Assembly: GCF_038025025.1 (NCBI RefSeq)
Contig: NW_027117353.1
Span: 186,001-250,000 of the forward strand
Origin: Phyllosticta citribraziliensis
Lineage: Eukaryota
Direction of reading: 5' to 3'
DNA length: 64,000 nt
In this document: one piece after another, positions 12,913 through 53,145 of the stretch
Layout of the letters: each line of letters opens with the position of its first letter
How positions within the stretch are numbered: position 1 is the first letter of the stretch
Program-made: the position numbers and the translations under genes
Notes under the pieces: model-generated
Database searches by the model: none
Told to the model about the DNA's origin: nothing
The model's input: the letters and a program-made list of their open reading frames with translations, nothing else

Positions 12913-15900
12913 ATGGCCATTGATGCAACCAATCCATACTGGGTTCGGAAGCAGCTCGAGTGGCTTACGGCCCCGCGTCCATCGCTGCAAGAGCGGTTGG
13001 CTCGTGGCCGTGATCGGATCCGAGATCAATATGCAGCAGCAGAGAGGGCGCATTATGCCCGACTACAAAATCAAGCTGCCCAGGGTTCTCCGTCAATGGG
13101 AGTATGTCCCCATTCACCCTATTCATTACTTGTCGCGGCGAGGACTAACATCCTACTGAACTAGCCTCCCCAAGGTACCCACAGTACTCCATACCTCCAG
13201 CACATGAGCGCTCCTGGAGCGCAGAAACGAAAAGAGCCTGACTGGAACACCAATGCATACGCCAATGGTCAGCCAGCTCAAAGGCAGAGAGTTCCAATCT
13301 CAAGGGCAAATCCTTCACCACCGTCTACTGGACCGCCAGGAAGATCATTGTCCAACCCAGGGCAAGGTTTTTCTTCTATGCCCGCTCACCCGCCCACGCT
13401 TATGGGGACATCTTATGCTTGGAATCCCGCTTGTGCGATCGGCCAAAACCAAGGACCTGTCCAGGCGTCCCCAGTTGCGCTCAACGGGAGCAGTCACTGG
13501 ATGCCATCATCACAAAATCACCAGCGCAGCCCTGTCCCTCAACCCAATCAGCAGCAGTCACATGCCCCTGCGCCAACATCTCGGGCTGCGCCGGCAACTA
13601 CGGTCACGCGGGAGACGCAACCTCACATGACCCCTTCAGTAAGAACCGGAAGTCTCTCATCTTCGACACCCTCTTCTCCGGCAGTCACGATCAAGCAGGA
13701 AATCCCAGCCTCAAATCCAGCACAGCGGTCATCCACTGAACCACAAGCCCACAATAGCCGCTCTACAACTATCGAAGCTGGATCGCCAGCTGGTCCAATC
13801 AGTGGCACCTCATCACCACGCCGAGAGGGTTTACTAGATGCCAATGTCATCCAGTTGCCAGAAACGCGCTCACATCGGTCTTCGGATGCTTGGCAGAGCA
13901 ATTCACTCTCAGAAGTTCAAAGGCCAACTCCAAGGCTCCCTGTCGTCGATTCATCATCGGCAAATATTGCACCACATTCACCAGCTTCACCTGGCATCAA
14001 CAGCGCGGAGGCGTCAGCTTCGAGCCCAGCCGTTGGTAACGCAGATGCAGGCGAAAGTCACTCTTTGGTGGATAAGGCGATTTCACAGTCAACACCTAGC
14101 TCGACAAATGGCCCCACAGCTTCACCTACGGCGCCAAACACGGGCGGGTCAAATGCCACAGAAACCACGCCGGCCATACCAAAGCAGTCACATGCTGCTG
14201 CGGCCGCTGCCCCATCTCCGGGCACAAGTAGCGGCACGGCTCGAGCGTCCCCTGCAAGTCCTCTTATGGTCCCATTGGATCGCAGGCCAGCAGATGAAGC
14301 GATGCCGGCAACCGATACTGCAGTCGATGAACCCATGTTTGTCGACCACAACATGGATATAGAAGATGTCCATACGGAAGCGGCAGGCGACACTACGCCT
14401 CCCGAAGTCGACGCAGCACAGCCACAGGTTGACTCTCCGAAGGAAGCCTCGAATGACGCTGGTTCAGCGGCGCGCAGCGATCCATCGGCTCAAGCTGCTG
14501 AGTCAAACTCGAGGGCATCGTCTTCGTCCCTCTCCTCACTCGTTGGGTCTCCCTCAGAGCCCTCGAATCATGGCTCGCCTGAGGTCGAGAGTGGAAGACA
14601 AGAATCGCGTCCATTGGTCGCTTCTTCGACCAGCTGCTTGAATGAAAACACTTCCTATGCGGCGGCGGCTTCAAACGCGTCTGCCGATTTCCGCAACGTT
14701 CCAAAGTCGCCCATGGCAGATCGTTTTTCCCCCAATACTGGATCTGTCACACGCGAATCTCTCCCGGCCAGGCGGCCATCTGACAACGTGTGGTCTGATA
14801 GGCGACGCCCTAGTGCGCGACAAGTCTCGCCAGCGGCAGGATCGTCGAATAATTCTGCATCAGGCAACACGGCATCAAAGACATCTTCCGAAAGTGCCAT
14901 TCGATCGTCCGCCGACATTCGACATCGCCTGGAGAAGAATTGGCCAGATGCAAACTTGAAAAATTACGAGTCATTCACTCGAAATATGCTCGAGAAGATT
15001 GCAGCCTTGGCTGCAAAAGGCGTCCCTGAGCGTGTCGTTCGAGCGCACATCAATATAGAGGCGCTACAGCGCATGGAAAAGAAAATCAAAAACTCTGGAG
15101 CAACTGTTTCTGGAGATCCTTATCCGACTGAGTACGACTGCAGCCGGGTCAAAGAGAAATACTGGGCTTGGAAGACCCAGAAGAAGAATGCAGGCGTTGC
15201 TCCTAAGCAATTCCCTCTTCCCGATGGGAATCAGGCTGAGCGCCTTATGCGCAAGCTCGCTGTCCACACATCCAGGGACGGATTTCTTGAGTACATGTAC
15301 CAGGACGAGCGGCCGCAGCTTACTGGTGCAGAAAGAAGTGGCAACACGCACACAGCGCGCCCTGAGCGAACAGGGCAGGCGTCACTGGCACCGGGTCCTG
15401 GACGACAGCTCAAGCGGCCTGCGTGGTACACATCGATCAAACCGCAGGAGTGGCAGAGCAGGTCCAGGCATGCTGGTTATACCGGCGTCGATGCCAAACT
15501 TAGCAAAATCAAAAGGCTCATTAGGGACTGCGCCGAGAAAAAACTCGATGCATTTGACGACATCAGGAAGGAGCTACACCAGTTGGCCTTCTTGGAAGTC
15601 AACAAAATCGTGGTCCGAAAAACTCAGATGCTTCACGAAGACACGGGCTTGCCGCAGCTGTTTGCAGCCGAGTACAGCAAAGGTGTTGACTACCCGTGGG
15701 ATATCCAAGCGGACGCCTTGGAACTGTACAACCGTTGGTGTTTACAGATTTTCTCTACCGATCTCTTGCGGGGAATCGTCAAGTCGCAAAAGGCCCACAA
15801 CAGGAGTACGGATCGTATCGAGCCTGGATTCCCGGGCAAGTCGGGCGCAGCCTACTATGGCCAGGGCGATCTTGTCAACGGCCAGTGGTGGCCGACTCAG

Positions 15901-16380
15901 CTCTGCACCGTCCGAGACGGAGCTCACGGGTCCACCCAAGGCGGCATCTACTCTGTGAAGGGGAAGGCCGCCTTTTCCATCATTGTGTCCGGAGGCTCCC
16001 AATACAATGATCGCGATGAGGGACACGAGCTGCGGTATTCGGGTACAAATTCGACTGACGGGAAATACACGGAAAACACACAGAGCTTGATTCTGAGCGT
16101 CGAGGACAAGAAGCCTGTCCGGGTCATCCGCTCACACAATATTCACAAGGGCGCAAGCAAGTACCGGCCTGCGCGTGGCTTCCGTTACGACGGCCTGTAT
16201 GACGTCGTCGGCTACCAGGTTGTGGACGAGTCGAAGAAAGCATGTCTCTTCCACATGGTACGCAGGCCAGATCAAGACCCCATCCGTGCCGAGGGCAAGG
16301 CCATGCGGCCCACCGAGGAAGAGATTGCCGAGTACGACAAGATCAAAAAAGAGCTCAACTCGGTGGGCTCGGAAATTTGA
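12913..16380 (+). CDS. SRA/YDG-domain protein with long disordered N-terminus, no RING/SET/PHD seen; probably 2 exons
   Basis: C-terminal GQWWPTQLCTVRDGAHGSTQGGI...SIIVSGGSQYNDRDEG..LRYSG...PVRVIRS...GFRYDGLYDV. A likely first exon from ATG 12913 is joined by a GTATGT...CTAAC...AG intron (~13102-13170) to ORF 13204..16380. Confidence 0.8.
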
Positions 16381-17533
16381 GGGAGTGGTGGAATTGGTTT
16401 GATGTGTCTCTGTTATGGTGCGGCATGATACCCAAAATTGCTGTCTCTTCTGCGTATAGACTGTCTTTTTACGGCTTCTGGGTGGATTTCCTGATGGCGA
16501 AACGGCGCTTCTGAGGCTAGCTTGCCGCCTATGGAGTTCAGTCTTTTGAGGTGGTGCCTTGTGGCAAGGGAGGAAAAATGGCGTTGCTTCAGGTCGGCGA
16601 TTCAAAAGGGTGGTTTCGAGTTGCTTCTCGACTGGGTGAGTGGCCGTCAGGCTGGAAAGGGGAATGAGGGAAATTCAAAGGCACGATTGCTGTGTCGAGG
16701 CCGACAAAGGCAGGCCCGGAGAACTAGCTACCTTCGCTGATGCACACGGTGGAAGTGCAAAAAAACCTTCTTTACTCGATTTACGCGTGATTCCAGCTGC
16801 GAGTAGAGGACGACAAAGGGTCCGTCCAACGGCCGAGGCATCAGACCTCTGTATGTATTGTGGCACTCATGAATCGTAAGTAAAGTGACGGCGTTCACAC
16901 AGATCATAATGCCAGCAACATAGGAGGAATGCGGGCTACGAGTGGAGAGATTGTGGTTCACGAGACTTGCGCACCCTCCTTGCTGACACAGCAGACGGTA
17001 CCTTGCATGATTCGCGACAACAAGGAAGTGAGACGGCACAAAAGAACGCATTATCGTTCAATGAGGGAGTGGAAGGTCGCCGGAGCAAGCGCAGTGCTCT
17101 GCGGTGCTAAGGCGCGGTGGGTGAGGTGGGCGGACATAGGCAGACGGCTAAACATCGGGGCCGAGGCGTAGCGGCAGACGTCTGGGTCGTATCTCGACCG
17201 CTTGCGGCGGGCCAACACTCATCCTCTACCTTGCAAGCAAAGACAAAGACGCAACCCCCGCCGTCGCAGAACATCACGACACGATAACTCGCCCGTATTG
17301 TTGATAGCAAGACAGAGTAGCGACTAGACAGAAGGCGCAGAGCAGCAGAGCGACCGGTGGAGAGCCGACGAACGTCGGTCGGGCCCCTCCCCATTCCAGC
17401 GACCTCTCAGCCAGCCGGCAGCCAGTCAACACACGTCACGCGGCTGCGTTTGCGATTCCCGCTACGCTACCATCACGCAACCTGACGACACGACCACGGC
17501 CGTCACGTCACAGGCAATCGATCAGCCATCATC

Positions 17534-19368
17534 ATGTCCAACACCATCACCGTCAGTAGTGAAGCCCGCCCTCTGCCCTTGAAGCGCTCGCTCTGTTCCC
17601 TTTGTCGCGAACCAACAACGCTGCGCAACATGGGCTGACCATCAACGACGAGTGCAGGGCGCCATCTTCGGCCAGATCATCGAGCGGGTCGTCGTAGCGT
17701 CGCAGAATGACTTTGAGGAGAGCGGCGTCGACCAGCAGACGCTGCAGGAGATGAAGGAGGTAGGTGCAACAGCAGTTTCGCATCGTCGGTTGTCGTCATG
17801 GGTCTTTTTCCCTTTGATACGTCATGCGCAGCGCCCGCGGGAGCCGACGACGAGCTGCATGGCAACAACAGCGACGACGACGATGAAGAAAAACAAATTG
17901 GCGTTGTTGTCGTCTTGTGGTCGCAGTGCAGCTCCAGGCTGCCGGCCAGCGAGGGATGGCAGGAAAAGCGGGGTTGGCTGGGCTGGAAGGAGCCGGCGGG
18001 CTCAGAGGCGATCGGGGGGCGAGGGCAGCGCTGCCACTTTGTATCTGCCCTGCCTTTCGCCTATTTTATACCTCCTTCCGGCCCCGCTCAACCTGCGCCA
18101 ACCTGTTCCGGCTAGCGCTGCACGTGACGCCCTCGTGCACCACCACCACCAACACCATCACCATCACTACCCTCCATCTTGTTCAATCTAGCTGACCGTC
18201 CCTCTCGCAGATTTGGCAAAAGAAGCTGTCCGCCCTCCATGTCGCCCAGATGCCCTGGGACCCGGCCCCGCCGCCGCCCATGCAAATCTCAAATCCCCCG
18301 ACCGTCCCATCCAACGACAGCTCCAAAGCCGTGCCCCAGCAGATGCAACCCCCTGCCTCTCAGCCTCCTCACCAGTACGCCCAGAATGCACAGGCCGGCG
18401 GCCCGAGGGTCAAGACCGAACCCGGATACCCTCCCAACATGCCCAACTACCAGATGAACGGCTACGGCTCCATGAATGGCTCCAACATTGCCCAGCAGCG
18501 CGCTGCCCAGCTGCTCCAGCAAAACTTTGGAGACCAGGCCAATGCCTCGATTGCGTCGGCCTATCCTCAGAACAATGTCGGCCTGCCTGGTCAACAGCAT
18601 CAACAGCACCAACAGCATCAACAGCAACGTCCCATGAACTTGCAGATGCCTCCCAATAGGCAGCATCAGCAGCATGCGGCTCAACACCCACCCCAGCAGC
18701 CGCAACAGCAGCAACAGCAGCAGCAGGGTCCTCCGTCGCAAAACCCACAGCAGCAACAGAGCTCAGTATATGCTGCCCAGACTGACGGCGCTGGCGATGC
18801 TGACCTGGCCGACTGGAACGCCTTGGTTGCTTCAAGACGTGCCGAGGCTGCCGGTGACCTTAGCGCCATGCATGCCGCAGATGGCATGCTGCGGGCGCAG
18901 TTCGAGCAGCGCATGGACGTCATCGAAAGTGGCTTGATGCAGCCGCTCGAGGAGCTCCCCAGCGCCAAGGGCAAAGGCAAGAAGCGCAGAAGCGCGCCGG
19001 CGCTCGCTCGCGCCACGCCCGCTGTGTCGAGCAGCAGCATCATCCCGCAGCTGGACGGCGAGCTGGGCGTCGACGACGACGCGAAGCCGGAAGAAAACGA
19101 CGACGAGGCCATCAACTCGGACCTCGACGACTCGGACGAGGAGCAGATCCAAGGCGAGGAGGACGGCCCGCAGGGCGACACGATGATTTGCACGTACGAC
19201 AAGGTGCAGCGCGTCAAGAACAAGTGGAAGTGCACGCTCAAGGACGGCATCCTGTCGACGGGCGGCAAAGAGTAGGTGTGCCCCGATCCCTCTCCGCAAC
19301 GCATGCAACTGACTCCTGTCTTTTCTAGCTACCTCTTCCACAAGGCCCAGGGCGAGTTTGAGTGGTAG
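17534..19368 (+). CDS. TOA1: Transcription initiation factor IIA large (alpha/beta) subunit; exons 17534-17551, 17658-17759, 18211-19271, 19329-19368
   Basis: IIERVVVASQNDFEESGVD..WQKKL, Q-rich linker, AINSDLDDSD, MICTYDKVQRVKNKWKCTLKDG and terminal KAQGEFEW. Confidence 0.95.
17926..18123 (+). other. Predicted long nested RNA hairpin inside TOA1 intron 2
   Basis: Concentric complementary arms: 17926-17932/18117-18123, 17980-17992/18072-18084, 18006-18011/18057-18062 and 18022-18028/18045-18051, plus shorter helices between them. Confidence 0.7.
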
Positions 19369-19865
19369 ACGTTCGACCGACTGGGTTCACGCCGAAAATG
19401 GCTGGCGGCTCCAACCAACCACGATGACATCCATTGATGATGATGGGTGGTGGGTGGGCTTCCTGCTGCCGGCTGCGGGCCCCCTGAACGTGCCTTTTTT
19501 CCTTTTCACTCGACCCCAACAACAACACTCACTCACTTCGTCGTGTACTATAACTCCCCACCTCCTCCTGATCCGTCCTTCTCCCTCTCCCTCTTCCCAG
19601 TACGGCCTCTTTTTCTTCCTTCTTCCTTATTTCTTTCTCAATCAACAATCATCCAACCAAATCAACCTGACCAGTCGATCAATCACTCGGCAAAATGTGT
19701 GCATCAAAAAACTCTCTCAAACAGACAAAAAGAAAAGAAAGTAAAAGACAAAAAATGCTTTTTTCGAAGGGGCATTGATCCGTTGGATACATGTCCTGCG
19801 TTTTGCCTAGGTTGCATTGCAGCCTTTCTTTTCGCTGCTTGCTTGCGGCGTGCGTGGCTTAGTTG

Positions 19866-45554: not shown

Positions 45555-46403
45555 AGAGGCGGAAGGGCGCGAGTCGTGGGCATGTCGACGCCTCGACGAG
45601 CACAGGCCGAGCAGCAGATGGAAGCTGAAGGCGCGGCTGCGGAATGACGATGGCGACGACTGGCGAGGCTAGCGCACCGAAGGCTAAGGTATTTAGCACC
45701 GGCACTCGGTTGGTACATGTACCAGTGGTAGGCAGGGATTCGGCGTTTGGCTGGGGACCTGAAGAGCAGAGGACCTGAGCGCAGAAACGGCATGGGGGGA
45801 GATGGTGGTGAGGAAGAAGGGAGGGAAGGGGTTGGACGACAGCACCAGAGGCAGTCCAGACGAGCAGAATCATTTTTTCTCTCTCCTCAGTTTGTCGCAG
45901 CAGTGTAGCGGGCGCGGCGGGAGGATTCATGACATCCATCAGCCCAGCCCAGGGTCTCGCCTCGCAGGTGGTGCATCAGTGGGTCCCAGGCCCGCCGCCA
46001 GCTCCAGACCTGACCGACTCTGGGACCCTCTGATCTGCACCCACCCCAGACCACCTCCACCTGCGCCTGCTGAAACACTGCTGCTCTGCTATGCGCATTG
46101 CTTCCTTCACGTCCTTCGCCCTGCATCCGGTTCGCCTCTTTGTGCTCAAGTCGCTTTGTCAACCTCTACAAACTCCCTGCCTGTCACTCTCCGCGTGTCT
46201 GTCCTACAACACTCGCCAAAGCTCAAAGAAGCAACCTTGCAGAATGGACGACAATGACCAACTCGTTGTCCGCTCCGCAAGCAGCCATGCGCCCGCTACT
46301 AAAGAACTTGCTTCTCCACATCTTTCTAGTCTGACCGTCTACGCGCGAGCCATTTCCACTTCTTGCTTCCACGTCTTCTCGCCTTCAGAAACCGCTGACC
46401 ATC

Positions 46404-49400
46404 ATGTCGCAACTACCCGACTCATCTCCCGAGCCCGACGGAGACAGCCAACAACCAGATGTTCTTCACAGGGGCGACATGTATCCAGCCTATGCAACCA
46501 TCCCCGCGGCTCCGTTGCCCAAACCGTACGGATGGTGGGCCGACATTGCTCCCAGGTTGGATGAATCCCAGAGGAACGTCATGCCAATGGTCATCAAAGC
46601 TTACGACCATTTGGTCGAGCGACAGCAGATGGAAATGAATGCCCTTCACGCTGAAGAAACCGCAATGCTGTTCGCAAGAGTCATTGCCAATATGGACCTT
46701 AAGTTTAACGAAATCCCCAAAGAGGAACGCAGGGAAAGGACAAAGCGGACCGCTCTGGTTTTTTGGCGAGCGTGGGGAGCGCAGGTCGATCCAATCTACA
46801 AGCGCGAACGGACTTGGGCAGAGTATGATGATTTTGTTCATGATGCCGCGTTTGAGGCTCTCAAGTACCTGAGGCTGTCAGTGGATGATTTCAACGACGA
46901 ATACGAGCAAGTGTTGGATGATCAGTGGGGGATTGACAACCACGAAAGATACGAAGAACGACGTCGCCGCCGAGATGAGGAGCACATCAAGCAGAGACAA
47001 GAATACCTGCAAGGTATCGGCCCGCTTCAAATAATACCAGGAACACATGGACAAGGGACACCATTGACGCCGCACGGAAGAAGCGCATCAATCCCATCGT
47101 ATACACCACCGAGTCCAACCCAGGTTCACAGGAAGATCTCGAACGACCTGGATGCTGGGAGCAGTTCCGGAGAAAGCCTCAGCATCTCTGGAGCACCTCG
47201 ACCCGTGAAATTTTATTTTGGGAAGCACAATGAGCATCTCACAACACTCCAGCGGGATCTTCAGACTGGCCTTCGTCACGAAGATTTCAAGACATGCAGG
47301 AGGCTCCAAGTTCAGGAGGCCGAAGAGCTGCGTCAGCAGCAGAAACTTGACTTGGCACACTTGCCTCAAGAAAGCGATTCTAAATTCGATTACGCACATC
47401 AGCGAATGTTGGATTGGCACCAAAAGCAAAAACTGAAGATCCGGAGAAAACACCTCCAAGAGTTGCAAGTGTTGGCGGAAGCAAAGAACCTTGACCAACA
47501 ACCAAAACCAACGTCGACGGATCCACAAACCCCCAAACCCTCCTATGCGTCGTATTCAAACAGCCTGAGGAGAGCCAGGAGTCTACAAGGTCGATCAGCT
47601 ACACCTTTCTCGAAAAGGTCAAGAAGCCACGGCCCACGCTACCTAGAATTCGATGACGATGGAGCTGAGATTCCATTCCTACATCGCCGTCCTTTAGAAG
47701 ATGAGAGAATGATCAGTCCTGCCGTCAGATCATCCGCTTCACACCGTAACACCGGCCCGCGCCGTCTCTGCTACGAGAGACATTCCGCACCGGCAGCATT
47801 TACGCCATACACCCCGGAACCAATGATTGGAGGCGAGAGAATCGAGCCGCTTAACGCAGGAACTCTTCTCGACTCGCGACCACCGGTCCCTGCTTTGGTA
47901 ATCACGAAGCCAGCAGACAGCGCACCAGCAGAATCAGGAAGGGGATGGGGAAGGCCTAGGCGCAACAACCCATCAAACTTGACCACTCCCACGTCCGCTG
48001 GCGCTTTCCCAAAACCTGGTCAACCTGGTGGTGGTTTGAATTCTGGAGGTCTTCGTCCCGACGTGTCGATTGGAAATGCACGAAGTGGCCGTGGCCCTCG
48101 AAGTCCTGGAACGCCGAGCCCAACTCCAAGGATATTTTCCAACGATCGAAATCCAGAGTTCTCTTCTAGTTCTGGCAACTTCTTTGATTCGGCTTACTAC
48201 GCGTCGGTGCACACCCCCGACCGCAAGGCTGCTTTCGGATCTCTTTTGAGGCCTAGCTCATCCGCCGCAGTGTTTTCCGACAAGCAGCAGCCTGACGGCA
48301 TGTCTGCTAAGTCTCCTAGCTTCCCGAAGAACAATACAGAACGGGGAAATGGTCCTAGCTCTGTGAGCTTCAAGAATAAGGACCCATTTGCTGCTCCAAA
48401 GCCTTCCGTCAACGGACAACCAGCTTCTTTTTCAAATCCACCGGGCCGTTTCCCAGCGACAACCTCCAGGCCACCTGCACGCCCTTCGACGTTGAACTCA
48501 AACTATCAGCCAGGCGCCATGTCTACGTTTCCCGGCTCTGCTTACGTACCACCTACCAACAGACAAACACCGAAGTCTGTTCTCAGGACGAAGCCGTTGG
48601 ACAACATTGAATCGCGTACAAATGGTTTGGGTGCTGGCCCCGATGGCCCTTTTTCGCCTAGGGCATCTCCCGGGATAGCCTCCTACGACGCGCCGTTGGT
48701 TGGGTCTGATTCGCATCCAGATGATCTATATGCTAGCCCCGATAGCCCCTTTTCGCCTAGGACATCTCGCGGGACAGCCTCTCACAATGAGGATCGGTTG
48801 ATTGAGTCCGACTCGGATCAAAACGATCTGAGTGCTCGCCCTAGAACCACTCGTTTCTTGGCCAGGCCATCTCTCAGGACAACATCTCGCAATGAGACCA
48901 TGGAGCATGACGTAGACGGCTTGGCCCACTCAAGAACCCCAAAGGAGATTGAACTTCCTCGGAATATGCTTGTGGCGTCTCGCAATACTCTTTCTGATAA
49001 TCTCAACGCATACGACGGCTACGATGGCTTTCGAAATTTCAGACCGCTCCCTGCAGCGCCCGAAAGATCAAACGTGCCTCGGAGGAGGCTCATGGCAACT
49101 ACCAGGACACCATTTCAGACCGAGACTCCGTCTGCTAGTTTCAACGCGTATGGCGGCCGAAATGGCTTTCGAGATCTCAGACCGTCCTCTGCTGCGCCTG
49201 AGAAATCTATCGTTCCTCGGAGTAGGTTCTCTGCGACTCCGAGGATACCACCTCAGCATGAGCCTCCATCCGCTGGTTTTAACGCTTACGGCGGCCGGAA
49301 TGGGATTCGGGACCTCGGACCGTCCTCTGCTGCGCCTGAAAAATCTCACGTGCCTCCTCCCAGGCACACTCCAAGACGATCCCGCTCAAGAACTATTCCT

Positions 49401-52148
49401 GGTCCCGATCTCGCCTCTCCTCACACCTTCCCACAATATGAGCGCAATGCGGGTATATCTACTGAGCAGAATCCACCACGTGTCGAAGTTTCCAGACCTG
49501 GAAGCCTCAAGCGGCCACATCCAGATACGTCTCCGGGCCATTGGGACTCTTTAAAAGGTGGCCTTTCTGGTGGGTTTTCGTCCTTTGCAGGCCTTTTCAC
49601 CCCCAGATCCAAGGCACCTGCAGCACAAATCCCTACGCAGTCTGGACCAGGAACATCGGACGACAGGACTGACCTCGAACGTCCGGACAAACGCAGGCGC
49701 CTGAACACACTGGTGGTCGATGATGAGCCTCTTGCAATGGATACCGTCCCAGACGAGATTATTCCCGATCATGAGACGCCAGCCCTTACGCAAGCTGACT
49801 CGCACAATACTGCCCCTAGCTATGAGACGGAGCCGTCTGAAGATAACGAAATCGAGTTTTGGAAAAGATTATTCCCGCACATGCTTCAAGAATCGCGAAG
49901 GCGCAACGAGATTAATAAATGGCAGCACTCTTTCTGGGAAAGGCAAATGAGCAAAGCTGGCTCTGAGTCCGCGGTATTTGACGCGTGGGACAATTTCACC
50001 ACCGAGATAGGGCTTCCCCCCAAGTACAAAAACCCCTCAGATCCGAAGCATAGGGAATATCTGAAGTCCATCGACCCAAAAAGGACTGTCCCTGTGGAAC
50101 CTACGAATGACACGGAAAAGATCGGCGGCAGTGAAAGCGCGGTCTTTCCTGCTACAGACCCTCCTATCGAGGTTACCAGAGAAAAACTCTTCAGGTCAAT
50201 TCAACGATGCCGAAGGCAAAACACACTTCCTGCAGAGCAATGCGATTACTGGGAAAGTCAAGCGAACAAAGCTGACTCTATGGATGAGTTAAGGGATGTG
50301 TGGCTCAGTTATAGAATTAAAATTCCGCCCCTCGAGTACCAAAACCTCTCGAAACAGAAGTCCACGGAGAAGCCGCGACCCGTCCTCAGGGCCGCTAGCA
50401 CCAGAGAACGGATGAGGAAGATCGTAGAGGAGACTCAAATGACCGACAATAAGTCTGCGAGCTGGCTTCGAAAGTTGAACAACGCGGATACAGCAGAAGG
50501 TCTTCGTAAGTGGAAGTCCGACTTCTACAAGGACCATCCTAATTACAATCCCAAAGTCAATGATACCACTCCGTCTGGGAAGCGAGACCGCGAGGGGTGG
50601 CCTTTTAAACCATTCGTCCCATATCCTACGCCGAAAACCTCTTCGAAACCGACCTCCCAACGGACTCCTTCCGGAGTTGTTATTCGAGCTAAAGACACTT
50701 CTCGGGATTTCGCGAGGAAGGACAGACATCTTGACCCGCGAACGGCCATTGAGAGCGGAAAGAGGGGAAGTGGAACGCTTCCATTTTCCAACCGTTTCCC
50801 CCGCCGTGAGACACCAAAAGTGACCGACACATCCCAGTTCGACAGATTCCTCCTCGGCGCGCGCCAAGAGGCGAACAGGGACGGCACGCAGGACGCGTCG
50901 GGCAAGAAGCCCAGCCATGTTCCAAAGGACACCGGAAAACAGCAGAGACCGCCAGCAAAGCAACAGCCTCGCAGACGTGCCCTGAACGCGAGCAGACCGA
51001 AAAAGACGGGCGGGACTGGATCGTCGGATAGTGGCTCTGACACTGACGGACCGGAGTTTGTTGACCCGGACAAGCGCAAAGCTCCAGCGAGTGAAGATGA
51101 CGTGTGGGAGACGCCGTCGGAGGACAGCAGCAGCGGCATTTTTGGCGGGAGTGGTGAAGACGATGATGATGGCGCGAGGGATTATGATTGGGAGCCTACT
51201 ATGCCGCGTGAGATGGAAGTGGACGAGGAAGAGGGTGATGATCAAGAGAAGAAAGGGGATGAGGAAGAGGTCGATATTGAAGAAGAGACCGAAATTGAAG
51301 AAGTGACCGACACTGAAGAAGAGGAAGATAGTGATGAACAGGAGAAGGAAACGGATGATGAAGATGAAGAAGACGTGTTTACCGATATTGAGGAAGAGGA
51401 GTATGCTGAGGATGATAGAGAGGAAGAAAGGGATGGTGGCGCGAAAGACCACATCAGTATCTCCAGTAGTCGTGAGTCAAGTCCATTGAGTGAGAGTGAA
51501 AACGACAACGACGAGACTCTTTCGCGCCTGGACGTCGGCTCCAGATACCTCGGAAGCGACGACGGGGAGTACAACGATCTTTTCGAGGAGGAGGACAACG
51601 ACGAAGACGAGCCCAACAACTCCGAAAGCACCGACTACGGCTCGTCCTCGTCGTCGTCCAACTCGCCCGCCGACCGCCCCAAGCGCAGGCACTCCAGCAA
51701 CAGCTCCTCCTCCAACTCACTCTCCTCCTCCAAAATCGAAGAAAAAGAAGAGGCAGTCCCCGACGCACTCCCCTCCTACCTCAAGCTCAGCCTCCAGCGC
51801 TACATCGCCTACTGGGCCCTCCACGACGGCATCACGCCCACGCAATCCGCCGAATACACGCGGCGCCTGGCCAAGTGCAACAGCGGCGGCTACGCCGATG
51901 TCGAAGAAGACGTCATCGAGCAGCTGCTGGAGCGGCAGCTGGAGCGGCTGCGCGACGCAGATCCCGAACGGCACGCGTGGCTCGCGCAAACGTTTGCGGA
52001 CGAGTGGGTGCCGGGCGTCGGCGGCAAGCATGACTGGACGCGGTTTGTGGAGCCGCCGTGTGATACGCGGAAGGGCGGGTGTGCGGTTTGTGCGGAGAAG
52101 GTTAGAGATGGGGTTACGGTTAGTTCGTTCTATGGGGGGCCGGGGTAG
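46404..52148 (+). CDS. Giant intronless hypothetical protein (1914 aa), mostly disordered, with internal repeats, acidic tract and C-terminal Cys cluster
   Basis: 5.7-kb uninterrupted ORF; no family recognised. Confidence 0.75.
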   Translation: MSQLPDSSPEPDGDSQQPDVLHRGDMYPAYATIPAAPLPKPYGWWADIAPRLDESQRNVMPMVIKAYDHLVERQQMEMNALHAEETAMLFARVIANMDLKFNEIPKEERRERTKRTALVFWRAWGAQVDPIYKRERTWAEYDDFVHDAAFEALKYLRLSVDDFNDEYEQVLDDQWGIDNHERYEERRRRRDEEHIKQRQEYLQGIGPLQIIPGTHGQGTPLTPHGRSASIPSYTPPSPTQVHRKISNDLDAGSSSGESLSISGAPRPVKFYFGKHNEHLTTLQRDLQTGLRHEDFKTCRRLQVQEAEELRQQQKLDLAHLPQESDSKFDYAHQRMLDWHQKQKLKIRRKHLQELQVLAEAKNLDQQPKPTSTDPQTPKPSYASYSNSLRRARSLQGRSATPFSKRSRSHGPRYLEFDDDGAEIPFLHRRPLEDERMISPAVRSSASHRNTGPRRLCYERHSAPAAFTPYTPEPMIGGERIEPLNAGTLLDSRPPVPALVITKPADSAPAESGRGWGRPRRNNPSNLTTPTSAGAFPKPGQPGGGLNSGGLRPDVSIGNARSGRGPRSPGTPSPTPRIFSNDRNPEFSSSSGNFFDSAYYASVHTPDRKAAFGSLLRPSSSAAVFSDKQQPDGMSAKSPSFPKNNTERGNGPSSVSFKNKDPFAAPKPSVNGQPASFSNPPGRFPATTSRPPARPSTLNSNYQPGAMSTFPGSAYVPPTNRQTPKSVLRTKPLDNIESRTNGLGAGPDGPFSPRASPGIASYDAPLVGSDSHPDDLYASPDSPFSPRTSRGTASHNEDRLIESDSDQNDLSARPRTTRFLARPSLRTTSRNETMEHDVDGLAHSRTPKEIELPRNMLVASRNTLSDNLNAYDGYDGFRNFRPLPAAPERSNVPRRRLMATTRTPFQTETPSASFNAYGGRNGFRDLRPSSAAPEKSIVPRSRFSATPRIPPQHEPPSAGFNAYGGRNGIRDLGPSSAAPEKSHVPPPRHTPRRSRSRTIPGPDLASPHTFPQYERNAGISTEQNPPRVEVSRPGSLKRPHPDTSPGHWDSLKGGLSGGFSSFAGLFTPRSKAPAAQIPTQSGPGTSDDRTDLERPDKRRRLNTLVVDDEPLAMDTVPDEIIPDHETPALTQADSHNTAPSYETEPSEDNEIEFWKRLFPHMLQESRRRNEINKWQHSFWERQMSKAGSESAVFDAWDNFTTEIGLPPKYKNPSDPKHREYLKSIDPKRTVPVEPTNDTEKIGGSESAVFPATDPPIEVTREKLFRSIQRCRRQNTLPAEQCDYWESQANKADSMDELRDVWLSYRIKIPPLEYQNLSKQKSTEKPRPVLRAASTRERMRKIVEETQMTDNKSASWLRKLNNADTAEGLRKWKSDFYKDHPNYNPKVNDTTPSGKRDREGWPFKPFVPYPTPKTSSKPTSQRTPSGVVIRAKDTSRDFARKDRHLDPRTAIESGKRGSGTLPFSNRFPRRETPKVTDTSQFDRFLLGARQEANRDGTQDASGKKPSHVPKDTGKQQRPPAKQQPRRRALNASRPKKTGGTGSSDSGSDTDGPEFVDPDKRKAPASEDDVWETPSEDSSSGIFGGSGEDDDDGARDYDWEPTMPREMEVDEEEGDDQEKKGDEEEVDIEEETEIEEVTDTEEEEDSDEQEKETDDEDEEDVFTDIEEEEYAEDDREEERDGGAKDHISISSSRESSPLSESENDNDETLSRLDVGSRYLGSDDGEYNDLFEEEDNDEDEPNNSESTDYGSSSSSSNSPADRPKRRHSSNSSSSNSLSSSKIEEKEEAVPDALPSYLKLSLQRYIAYWALHDGITPTQSAEYTRRLAKCNSGGYADVEEDVIEQLLERQLERLRDADPERHAWLAQTFADEWVPGVGGKHDWTRFVEPPCDTRKGGCAVCAEKVRDGVTVSSFYGGPG
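49005..49360 (+). repeat. Intragenic tandem repeat, 138-nt (46-aa) period, about 2.6 copies
   Basis: NAY(D/G)G..G(F/I)R..RP..AAPE(R/K)S.VP units start at 49005, 49143 and 49281. Confidence 0.9.
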
Positions 52149-53145
52149 TGGGTGGTTGGTAAGGGGGTGGATGGGAGGGGAATGAGGGGGTAAAGGACTT
52201 AGGTCGGTCTCTTTTGTTGCCCGTGTTTGGCTTTGGGTTTATTTACCGCCAGTGCCACTTTAATAATGAAGCTTTGCCGTTGAATTTGACTTGCCGCTCG
52301 CAAACATAGCTACAGTGTATCTGCAACAAGATAAAGGTGCTGTGACCAAACTATGAGAGAATAGTCAATTTCATGCGTAATCGAAGAACCACTGCTGTTG
52401 TGGAGACGGGGTAACCTCCGTAGCCGAAGGACAGTGTCTTGCGTCTTTGCGTTAGCCATCTGTTGTAGACAATCCAAAGGAAGAGAGAAAGTATTTTAGA
52501 GCATAAATCAAAGACATAACCTCATCCTCACTGTCCCTGTTATGTACCTTTAACTATCCTCCTCCTCCTCATCGTCCATCACCGCACGTACCACCCTACG
52601 CACGCACGCACCAGCAAAAAGGAAAAGAGAAAAAATCTGCAAAACGTACAACAGCCGGGATTCGCTGCTGGTCACCCACGCAACTACTAATCGGCCGCAA
52701 GGTAGCTTATCTATGGAAGAGCGGACGGGATTCCGAGTTTTCTACCTGCTATGGTCGTACGTGACGATCGATGTTACTTCTACGCTCTATGTACTGGACG
52801 CTTTTGGCAAGTTAACGCACGGAGCAAAGTGGATGCAGATTCGATGAATTTTGAGACGATTCATGTACATACAGTGAGCGAGAAAAGAAAAGAAAATGAA
52901 AGAGGCGGGTGGAGTAGAGGGATTGCAGAACTGCAATATCGCCCTTCCTTTGCGCCAATTCGCGTCGTGGAACGCCAAAGCGGACGGGCCCGGGTCGTGA
53001 TTTGCCCAATTAAGGCGACATGCAAACGAGCAGTGACGAGCAGAAAGGGGAAAGAAGAAATAAAAGAAAGCAGAAAAGACTTCATAACAGCGTAGACAGG
53101 CACCGCACCGGGTCAGTCTACTCACCGAAAACCCCCACCGCGCAG

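Follow-up and report, generated by a model that had tools for sequence, protein, structure and literature searches.

A conserved chain of short motifs, possibly an antisense promoter, in the long second intron of a fungal TFIIA large-subunit gene

What is kept in an intron that stays long over great evolutionary distances? The question is raised by the gene for the large subunit of the general transcription factor TFIIA (TFIIA-L), found on the + strand of a 64,000-nucleotide (nt) stretch of Phyllosticta citribraziliensis DNA (contig NW_027117353.1, positions 186,001 to 250,000). This whole stretch is referred to here as the window, and its positions are counted from its first letter. Filamentous-fungal introns are mostly 50-100 nt in length and evolve rapidly. 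Intron 2 of TFIIA-L (17760-18210), a phase-0 intron that runs GTAGGT...CTGAC...CAG, is 451 nt in length as against 106 nt for intron 1 and 57 nt for intron 3, and an initial annotation of the sequence was right to call it oversized. The same annotation described a long, nested RNA hairpin within the intron (17926-18123) and regarded it as a selected structure. The intron does carry a conserved element. The conserved feature, as set out below, is a series of short motifs that resemble DNA sites, including a TATA box and a CDEI-type E-box, and not the hairpin; these motifs may form an antisense core promoter.

The long intron and its motif chain

The borders of intron 2 are given by a spliced contig and by the proteins of relatives. 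In sequencing run X4, which comes from a relative, a contig splices from 17757 to 18209 and leaves out 451 nt that have GT..AG ends; because this spliced contig is present, the run contains complementary DNA (cDNA). The intron is also absent from the annotated proteins of two relatives, which read ...LQEMKE|IWQKKL... without interruption. In the window, the reading frame of exon 2 stays open into the intron as far as 18191.

Orthologous loci were taken from metagenome contigs, fetched with an alignment of 25 TFIIA proteins. Among 487 stretches that matched the pattern, 405 encoded a relative, and the best 80, with 34-51% TFIIA identity, were kept. Their best protein matches assign them, approximately, to the Pleosporales, other Dothideomycetes, the Lecanoromycetes and a Geoglossum-like group. 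Exon 2 could be located in 68 of these 80 loci, and 47 of the 68 have an intron of 240-484 nt with GT..AG ends at the same phase-0 site. The remaining 21 consist of 14 spliced, cDNA-like contigs, five failures of the exon-3 pattern, a mis-call (L019) and one locus (L033) in which the intron is 75 nt long and lacks the element. Counted over genomic loci, the long intron (240-484 nt) is found at the orthologous site in 47 of 49. The oversized intron is an old, conserved trait of the TFIIA-L gene.

Removal of duplicates left 40 loci, which together with the window provide 41 unique introns. Similarity between clades is limited to intron positions ~170-340; the spacer that precedes it (17760-17925 in the window) is conserved in length but not in sequence and is unalignable between clades. 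The conserved element is ~180-200 nt long and presents its motifs in a set order, namely AAGCGGGG, a G run, ATTTG, TTTATA, a CCGCCAAG-like block and TCAYGTGAC. When expressed as weighted consensus blocks, with the window excluded, this order becomes GTGGCAGCCT, CCGAAAGCGGGGC, GGGG, CCCCAGCATTTG, TTTATA, CCCTGCCC, CCCGCCTAGAC and TCATGTGAC.

Within the window, the near-invariant AAGCGGGG block takes the form GGAAAAGCGGGGT (17962-17974), and contributes 14.8 bits in the motif-chain test described below. It is followed by the G run (18014-18019), which is a C run on the - strand, and by the TATA box (18063-18070), which reads TATAAAAT on the - strand and ATTTTATA on the + strand. Beyond these lie the C-rich block CCCCGCTCAACCTGCGCCAACCTG (18082-18104), the counterpart of CCCGCCAAG, and the E-box GCACGTGAC (18120-18128, with its core at 18121-18126), the counterpart of TCATGTGAC, which contributes 7.1 bits. 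The G run and the C-rich block are placed by the ortholog blocks together with the chain test. All of the window motifs, taken as 17962-17974, 18014-18019, 18065-18070, 18082-18093 and 18120-18128, fall within or at the edge of the 17926-18123 hairpin.

The motifs recur widely among the 41 unique introns. The AAGCGGG-type motif, A[AG]G[CT]GGG, occurs in 40 of them (3.0 expected), GCC[AT]AG in 20 (6.0 expected) and CAYGTGAY in 17 (0.5 expected). A TATA sequence in the antisense orientation, [TC]TTATA, is found in 28 introns against 4.9 expected, and one in the sense orientation in a single intron against 2.6 expected. The E-box is situated 126-144 nt past AAGCGGG in most of the introns that have one, and 155 nt past it in the window. 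On the - strand CAYGTGAY reads RTCACRTG, the CDEI/Cbf1-type consensus, and AAGCGGG with its A-rich flank may resemble a Mig1/CreA-type site. Finally, the skew of G over C is positive to the left of centre and negative to the right of it in all 41 introns.

A profile built from the 41 unique elements finds matches in 57 of 81 sources (475 kb), once in each, on the TFIIA strand and within the intron. The weakest two matches are non-significant (L004, E 1.9; L076, E 2.6), and held-out loci are also matched (L051, 4e-29; L013, 6e-22; L014, 2e-9; L002, 2e-6). No second copy of the element was found in the 64-kb window or the 80 loci, 475 kb in all. The window itself was assessed with a motif-chain test, in which eight ordered blocks with spacing limits were scored by position weight matrices that had been built without it. 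The window intron scores 65.9 bits as opposed to 32.6±5.3 bits for 300 dinucleotide shuffles, none of which scores as high (maximum 53.2). The same score was taken for 848 natural segments of the window, each 451 nt long; the top two are those that overlap the intron (66.5 and 65.8 bits), and the next reaches 51.3 bits. An ordered motif chain is thus conserved as sequence at the same intron site across fungi with 34-51% TFIIA identity.

Variation within the genus follows the same boundaries. The core of the element in run X4 differs from the window by 3 letters and 0 gaps over 215 aligned nt, as compared with 10 letter differences and 7 gap letters over the 203 nt of 17730-17932, which include the adjacent spacer. 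In run X12, 80 unlike letters stand in place of 17856-17933, and 17934-18069 is aligned with 12 differences and 6 gap letters. The Phyllosticta capitalensis protein model P0004 (488 amino acids) contains ~80 residues that are translated from the intron 2 element, as judged against 17930-18130 of the window, and they correspond to two window frames. This two-frame reading means that the nucleotides are conserved with an indel between them, and therefore that the constraint is non-coding. The residues are most likely a mis-annotation arising from a stop-poor, GC-rich element, which is to say that the element misleads gene callers. In a further run (X5), one contig matches 17957-17996 alone, the 40 nt around AAGCGGGG, and is unlike the window in its flanks on both sides; two differing versions of the adjoining stretches occur in this run, and a second fungus, carrying an element of its own, is probably present in it.

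An intron ~400 nt in length with an ordered motif chain has been kept despite the divergence of the protein around it. Such deep conservation of non-coding sequence is rare in fungi, and its depth points to a function that annotation has missed.

The hairpin and its conservation

The nested complementary arms described in the initial annotation are present in the sequence, with a G-rich left arm (49% G) and a C-rich right arm (41% C) on the + strand. The minimum free energy (MFE) structure of 17926-18123 is a single long, interrupted hairpin of 71 pairs (33 GC, 16 CG, 16 AU/UA and 6 GU) at -103.2 kcal/mol. Its longest unbroken helix is ~10 base pairs (bp), and the 13-bp stem that had been proposed requires one G-U pair. 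The fold does better than dinucleotide shuffles, by a modest margin (z -2.4 to -2.9): on the + strand z is -2.37, with 4 of 200 shuffles as good, and -2.87 in a repeat, with 0 of 150 as good. The - strand gives a value about equal to this (z -2.84, 1 of 200 as good). The composition of the two arms was considered as the sole source of the fold and was rejected, since shuffles that preserve each arm leave z at -2.49 (2 of 150 as good).

The MFE was regressed on GC content in 3868 windows of 198 nt covering both strands of the 64 kb. Just three of these have a lower residual than the hairpin, which is hence the second most structured place in the window. All three come from 51514-51777 (- strand), where an open reading frame of 1937 amino acids has its acidic repeats. 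Folded on its own, 51500-51790 (- strand), within the open frame 46335-52148 (+), reaches -139.8 kcal/mol with a z of -4.43, and none of 200 shuffles does as well; this outlier probably reflects self-complementary GAC/GAG acidic coding repeats rather than an RNA element. Because outliers as large as this arise here from a coding repeat, without an RNA function, fold energy alone proves little.

Orthologs provide a more direct test. When 30 representative orthologous elements were folded against shuffles, four reached a z of -2 or lower on the + strand (mean of all 30, -0.36) and four on the - strand (mean -0.31). The four on the + strand are the window, L015, L016 and L023, with L025 at -1.99. 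RNAalifold returned 0 consensus pairs over all 41 sequences, 17 weak pairs at -17.3 kcal/mol, of which one shows a double change, over 15 Pleosporales-like sequences, and 3 pairs over 14 lichen-like sequences. The likeliest partner of the AAGCGGG run varies among 32 sequences and differs in every one of L016, L073, L023, L012 and L015, which belong to one clade. Imposed on the alignment, the structure of the initial annotation pairs in 54.9% of 1462 cells. With slid partners the figure is 37-45%; shuffles give 51.8±0.7%, and none of 500 reaches the observed value. A small excess of this kind is expected, because the structure was taken from one row and sets a G-rich arm against a C-rich arm. 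There are 38 pairs with double changes, as compared with 34.8±2.5 in shuffles; 69 of 500 shuffles reach 38, so that these pairs show no enrichment. Tests that use the alignment are conservative, because the alignments were built on sequence and are of poor quality in the arms; the per-sequence tests are free of that weakness. The outermost stem of the hairpin appears also to have been broken within the genus, as judged by parsimony from the P0004 protein rather than from nucleotides.

Sequestration of the 5' splice site was considered and rejected, since the complement is not conserved: the duplex z has a mean of +0.1 and is -2 or lower in 2 of 30 orthologs. The window does contain a perfect 10-nt complement between 17753-17762, which covers the end of exon 2 and the 5' splice site (GAAGGAG|GTA), and 18069-18078, just past the TATA box (duplex z -2.0). 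This complement is lineage-specific.

No known RNA family matches the element. Rfam gave three chance-level rows for 17000-19500 at E<=10 (best E 3) and 0 matches for eight orthologous loci (57 kb) at E<=0.1. Over the whole window at the gathering score, Rfam reports a 5S rRNA gene alone, at 52643-52762 on the - strand (RF00001, 87.7 bits, E 2.2e-17), and nothing at the element. In the portion of the literature covered by a full-text search, nothing was found on a TFIIA intron element.

Several known systems invite comparison. Precursors of Neurospora microRNA-like RNAs (milRNAs) are likewise hairpins in transcribed non-coding stretches, and the initial annotation had suggested such a precursor; but a near-perfect duplex of ~20 bp, as in a miRNA-like precursor, is not present, the helix is unbroken for ~10 bp at most and so too short for a typical small-RNA duplex, and the arms are not conserved as pairs. 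The zipper stems of budding-yeast introns share with TFIIA-L an unusually long intron in which segments that can pair lie between the 5' splice site and branch point. In contrast to zipper stems, the pairing in TFIIA-L is not conserved in energy, partners or covariation, and it is the sequence motifs that are conserved instead. The fungal thiamine pyrophosphate riboswitches (NMT1/THI4 type; RF00059) offer another likeness, as a deeply conserved non-coding intron element of filamentous fungi that could steer splicing. The TFIIA-L element differs from them in having neither an Rfam match nor a conserved fold, and in a host gene that has no metabolic link.

The claim of a selected structure rather than a recent inverted duplication thus stands in part. 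The element is selected, at an orthologous site and, in the sequence searched, in a single copy, but the evidence does not support the RNA hairpin as the selected feature, as 26 of 30 orthologs are no more stable than their shuffles. The structure itself is conserved neither across clades nor through compensating double changes. A conspicuous hairpin in a single genome need not be a selected feature.

A candidate antisense promoter and its rivals

The reading that we favour, tentatively and at somewhat less than even odds, is that intron 2 contains a conserved antisense TATA-type core promoter and that the hairpin potential is a by-product of it. The module would be a DNA regulatory element of ~180-200 bp that was in place in intron 2 before the Dothideomycetes split from the lichen-forming classes and has stayed there, and the intron is proposed to be long because the module is present. 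Read on the - strand, its layout matches an RNA polymerase II core promoter of the TATA type, with the E-box (18121-18126), a CTTGGCGG-like block and then TATAAAAT (18070 to 18063). Some 40 nt beyond the TATA box on this strand would come a C-rich start region followed by GCCCCGCTTT. Transcription would start near 18028-18030 and run back across exon 2, intron 1, exon 1 and the TFIIA promoter, and the antisense RNA might reduce or gate the expression of TFIIA-L, either through transcriptional interference or through pairing with the sense RNA. At the level of sequence, the TATA box has a fixed orientation and the E-box motif is present upstream of it, the latter as a matter of presence only. 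The mirrored G-rich and C-rich halves would give the sense pre-mRNA its hairpin incidentally, with a more extended register in Phyllosticta; since the + strand is G-rich to the left and C-rich to the right of the TATA in every ortholog, the halves can always pair somehow.

The contigs of run X4 bear on this promoter. Those at 17730-17932 and 17908-18028 have depths of 432 and 446.5, whereas one at 18037-18130 has a depth of 3.5 and the spliced exon 3 one of 11.4. The high-depth contigs end at 18028, the low-depth contig restarts at 18037 beside adapter sequence, and the break lies 35-42 nt from the - strand TATA. A 3672-nt contig ending at 17759 (depth 199) is colinear with unspliced intron 1. 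These depths hint at an abundant RNA that ends sharply at 18028; we infer its strand, as we do the activity of the promoter and its effect on TFIIA. The abundant RNA was also considered as a telomerase RNA and rejected, as there is no TAACCCTAA-type template nearby; two one-mismatch matches exist in the window, both elsewhere, against 3.7 expected.

A number of observations weigh against an antisense promoter. [TC]TTATA is lacking in 13 of the 41 introns, mainly lichen-like ones (L042, L048, L053, L066, L071). The best-conserved blocks, AAGCGGGG and the G run, would be located downstream of the start, and the conserved ATTTG block would sit between the TATA box and the start; both placements would be unusual for a core promoter. 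In 38 long introns the 5' splice site and the AAGCGGG motif are 192.9±7.4 nt apart (range 175-207), a spacing that this reading leaves unexplained; in three loci (L009, L061, L069) they are 73-76 nt apart. The X4 contigs come from a single relative's run and carry neither strand, start nor local level. The + strand hairpin does better than its arm-by-arm shuffles, as noted above. There is no conserved - strand open reading frame and no conserved divergent neighbour downstream on the - strand (23 loci; upstream flanks of 38 loci). Finally, an nhmmer profile made without the window found no match in it, with no residue passing the seed filter, and for this reason the homology of the window element rests on the motif-chain test, which was designed post hoc.

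A conserved divergent neighbour that might own the promoter was in fact sought with tblastx and rejected: 14000-17760 of the window, compared with 38 upstream flanks, matched exon 2 alone together with three weak strays (L037/L038, L069 and L075). The conserved upstream genes among 23 loci are on the + strand.

Fungal antisense units that control their sense gene include frq/qrf of Neurospora and PHO84 and IME4/RME2 of yeast. The candidate promoter in TFIIA-L would resemble frq/qrf-type units in its position within, or at the far end of, the gene, in an RNA that runs back over the sense promoter and 5' region, and in the expected mechanism of transcriptional interference or premature termination. 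It would differ from them in that the putative core promoter would sit in an intron of a general transcription factor gene. A second difference is that antisense promoters are usually poorly conserved, whereas the TFIIA-L element is conserved motif by motif across classes.

The strongest rival returns to the sense strand, where the two halves of the element would pair loosely, in some register, in the pre-mRNA and loop out protein-binding motifs that are conserved and single-stranded, or proteins would bind linear sites, thereby controlling splicing or retention of the intron and perhaps providing TFIIA feedback. The window hairpin is modestly better than shuffles, the switch from G to C skew in 41 of 41 introns makes long-range pairing of the arms always possible, the orientation relative to the gene is constant, and the fixed distance from the 5' splice site suits an RNA-level or co-transcriptional role more than a DNA-level one. 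Pairing on the imposed structure also exceeds both slid and shuffled controls, and isolated compatible changes can be seen by eye, as between L048 and L058, where A-U becomes G-U opposite GTCCTGCTT. However, most orthologs fold no better than shuffles, consensus pairs are absent over all clades, the invariant motif has no constant partner, double changes show no enrichment, and the pairing figure is inflated by a structure derived from one row. The orthologs do not share the complementarity to the 5' splice site, the outermost stem seems broken within the genus, and the conserved motifs fit classical DNA sites. We regard a sense-strand RNA element as unlikely.

Almost the same can be said of a DNA-level element of another kind, such as a bidirectional or sense internal promoter, an enhancer or nucleosome-free region, or a roadblock (for example TBP-TFIIA on the TATA box) that attenuates TFIIA-L, and this too we think unlikely. 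It shares the motif and orientation data with the antisense promoter, the coding-strand composition is C-rich in both outward directions, and the low-depth X4 contig begins at 18037 and heads right. The 18028 stop also falls ~8 nt before the ATTTG/TATA block, which is where a roadblocked polymerase is expected to leave RNA 3' ends. Yet the products of roadblocks are unstable, and the RNA here has ~40 times the depth of the spliced contig. A sense start in intron 2 would yield a protein that lacks its 40 N-terminal residues, which are conserved, and the earliest in-frame methionine of exon 3 is not conserved. Fungal activating sites seldom work from downstream.

A more specific proposal, which goes beyond the antisense promoter itself and which we consider doubtful, is that the module acts as a sensor of its own gene product. 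TBP-TFIIA bound to the antisense TATA would give rise to antisense RNA or to a block in elongation, and so set the output of TFIIA-L. As part of the same doubtful proposal, the feedback circuit would have been kept, along with the long intron and the ~193-nt spacer, from before the split between the Dothideomycetes and the lichen-forming classes. The autoregulation of TFIIA that the initial annotation had entertained is in this sense possible, but by a route other than an RNA hairpin. If either the antisense promoter or the TBP-TFIIA sensor is true, the gene would allow feedback control of the basal transcription machinery to be tested directly.

It is improbable that the intron houses a small non-coding RNA gene on either strand, whether of the small nuclear (snRNA) or small nucleolar (snoRNA) type with an upstream TATA or as an RNA processed from the intron. 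The conserved block is compact (~180 nt) and contains a TATA together with blocks like upstream elements, abundant X4 RNA overlaps its left half, and a T5 run is present on the - strand at 17889-17893, 137-141 nt from 18030 in the window. The X4 contig, however, passes this T run and reaches 17730 at equal depth, and L016 and L023 have, by eye, no corresponding run. Neither an Rfam family, in the region (E<=10) or the eight orthologous loci (E<=0.1), nor a conserved structure was found, and C/D and H/ACA box patterns and Sm sites, sought by eye only, gave nothing convincing.

A miniature inverted-repeat transposable element (MITE) would resemble the TFIIA-L element in its terminal complementary arms, GTGCAGC/GCTGCAC, and its inverted-repeat look. 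The element differs from MITEs in being single-copy in the sequence searched and orthologous across classes, and in having arms that are G-rich and C-rich, respectively, and not duplicates of one sequence. Nor is it a lineage-restricted insertion, as it occupies the orthologous intron site in loci with 34-51% TFIIA identity, which supports the view that it is neither a recent inverted duplication nor a MITE. That the hairpin has no function at all, being a chance GC-rich fold or a decayed MITE relic, draws on a z of just -2.4 to -2.9 at a place chosen after reading 64 kb and on the stronger, coding-repeat outlier in the same window, but is contradicted by the motif chain at the orthologous position in distant classes, by one copy per locus with none elsewhere in 475 kb, and by an X4 core with far fewer changes than its adjoining sequence, and can be set aside as very improbable.

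The rest of the gene and its neighbourhood

The TFIIA-L gene consists of four exons. Exon 1 (17534-17551) encodes MSNTIT, an N-terminus identical to those of proteins P0002 and P0003, and is followed by intron 1 (17552-17657), which reads GTCAGT..CAG and is defined by the sequence against relatives' proteins. Exon 2 (17658-17759) comprises 34 codons, GAIFGQ...LQEMKE, and matches the Pfam TFIIA family (PF03153) with an E value of 1.3e-9. Near the 3' end of intron 2, the branch-point region TAGCTGACC (18189-18197) includes a TGCTAA/CTGAC block that is conserved in the orthologs. Exon 3 (18211-19271) matches Pfam TFIIA with an E value of 7e-68 and has 94% identity to the Phyllosticta citrichinensis protein. 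Intron 3 (19272-19328) and exon 4 (19329-19368), which ends in DYLFHKAQGEFEW and the stop codon, are placed by the C-terminus of P0002. The closest TFIIA-L proteins all come from Phyllosticta, with 94% identity in P. citrichinensis, 85% in P. paracitricarpa and 80% in P. capitalensis.

Upstream of the gene, a 1.15-kb gap (16381-17533) is without a long open reading frame. It is preceded by an open frame of 1071 amino acids at 13165-16380 on the + strand, whose C-terminal part is SRA/YDG-like by eye. Among the orthologous loci, a highly conserved + strand gene is located ~700-2200 nt upstream of exon 2 in L009, L018, L042, L048, L053, L066, L069, L071 and L079, with 88-94% tblastx identity from one locus to another. 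The Pleosporales-like loci have a different, less conserved + strand neighbour in common, and the neighbour in the window differs from both.

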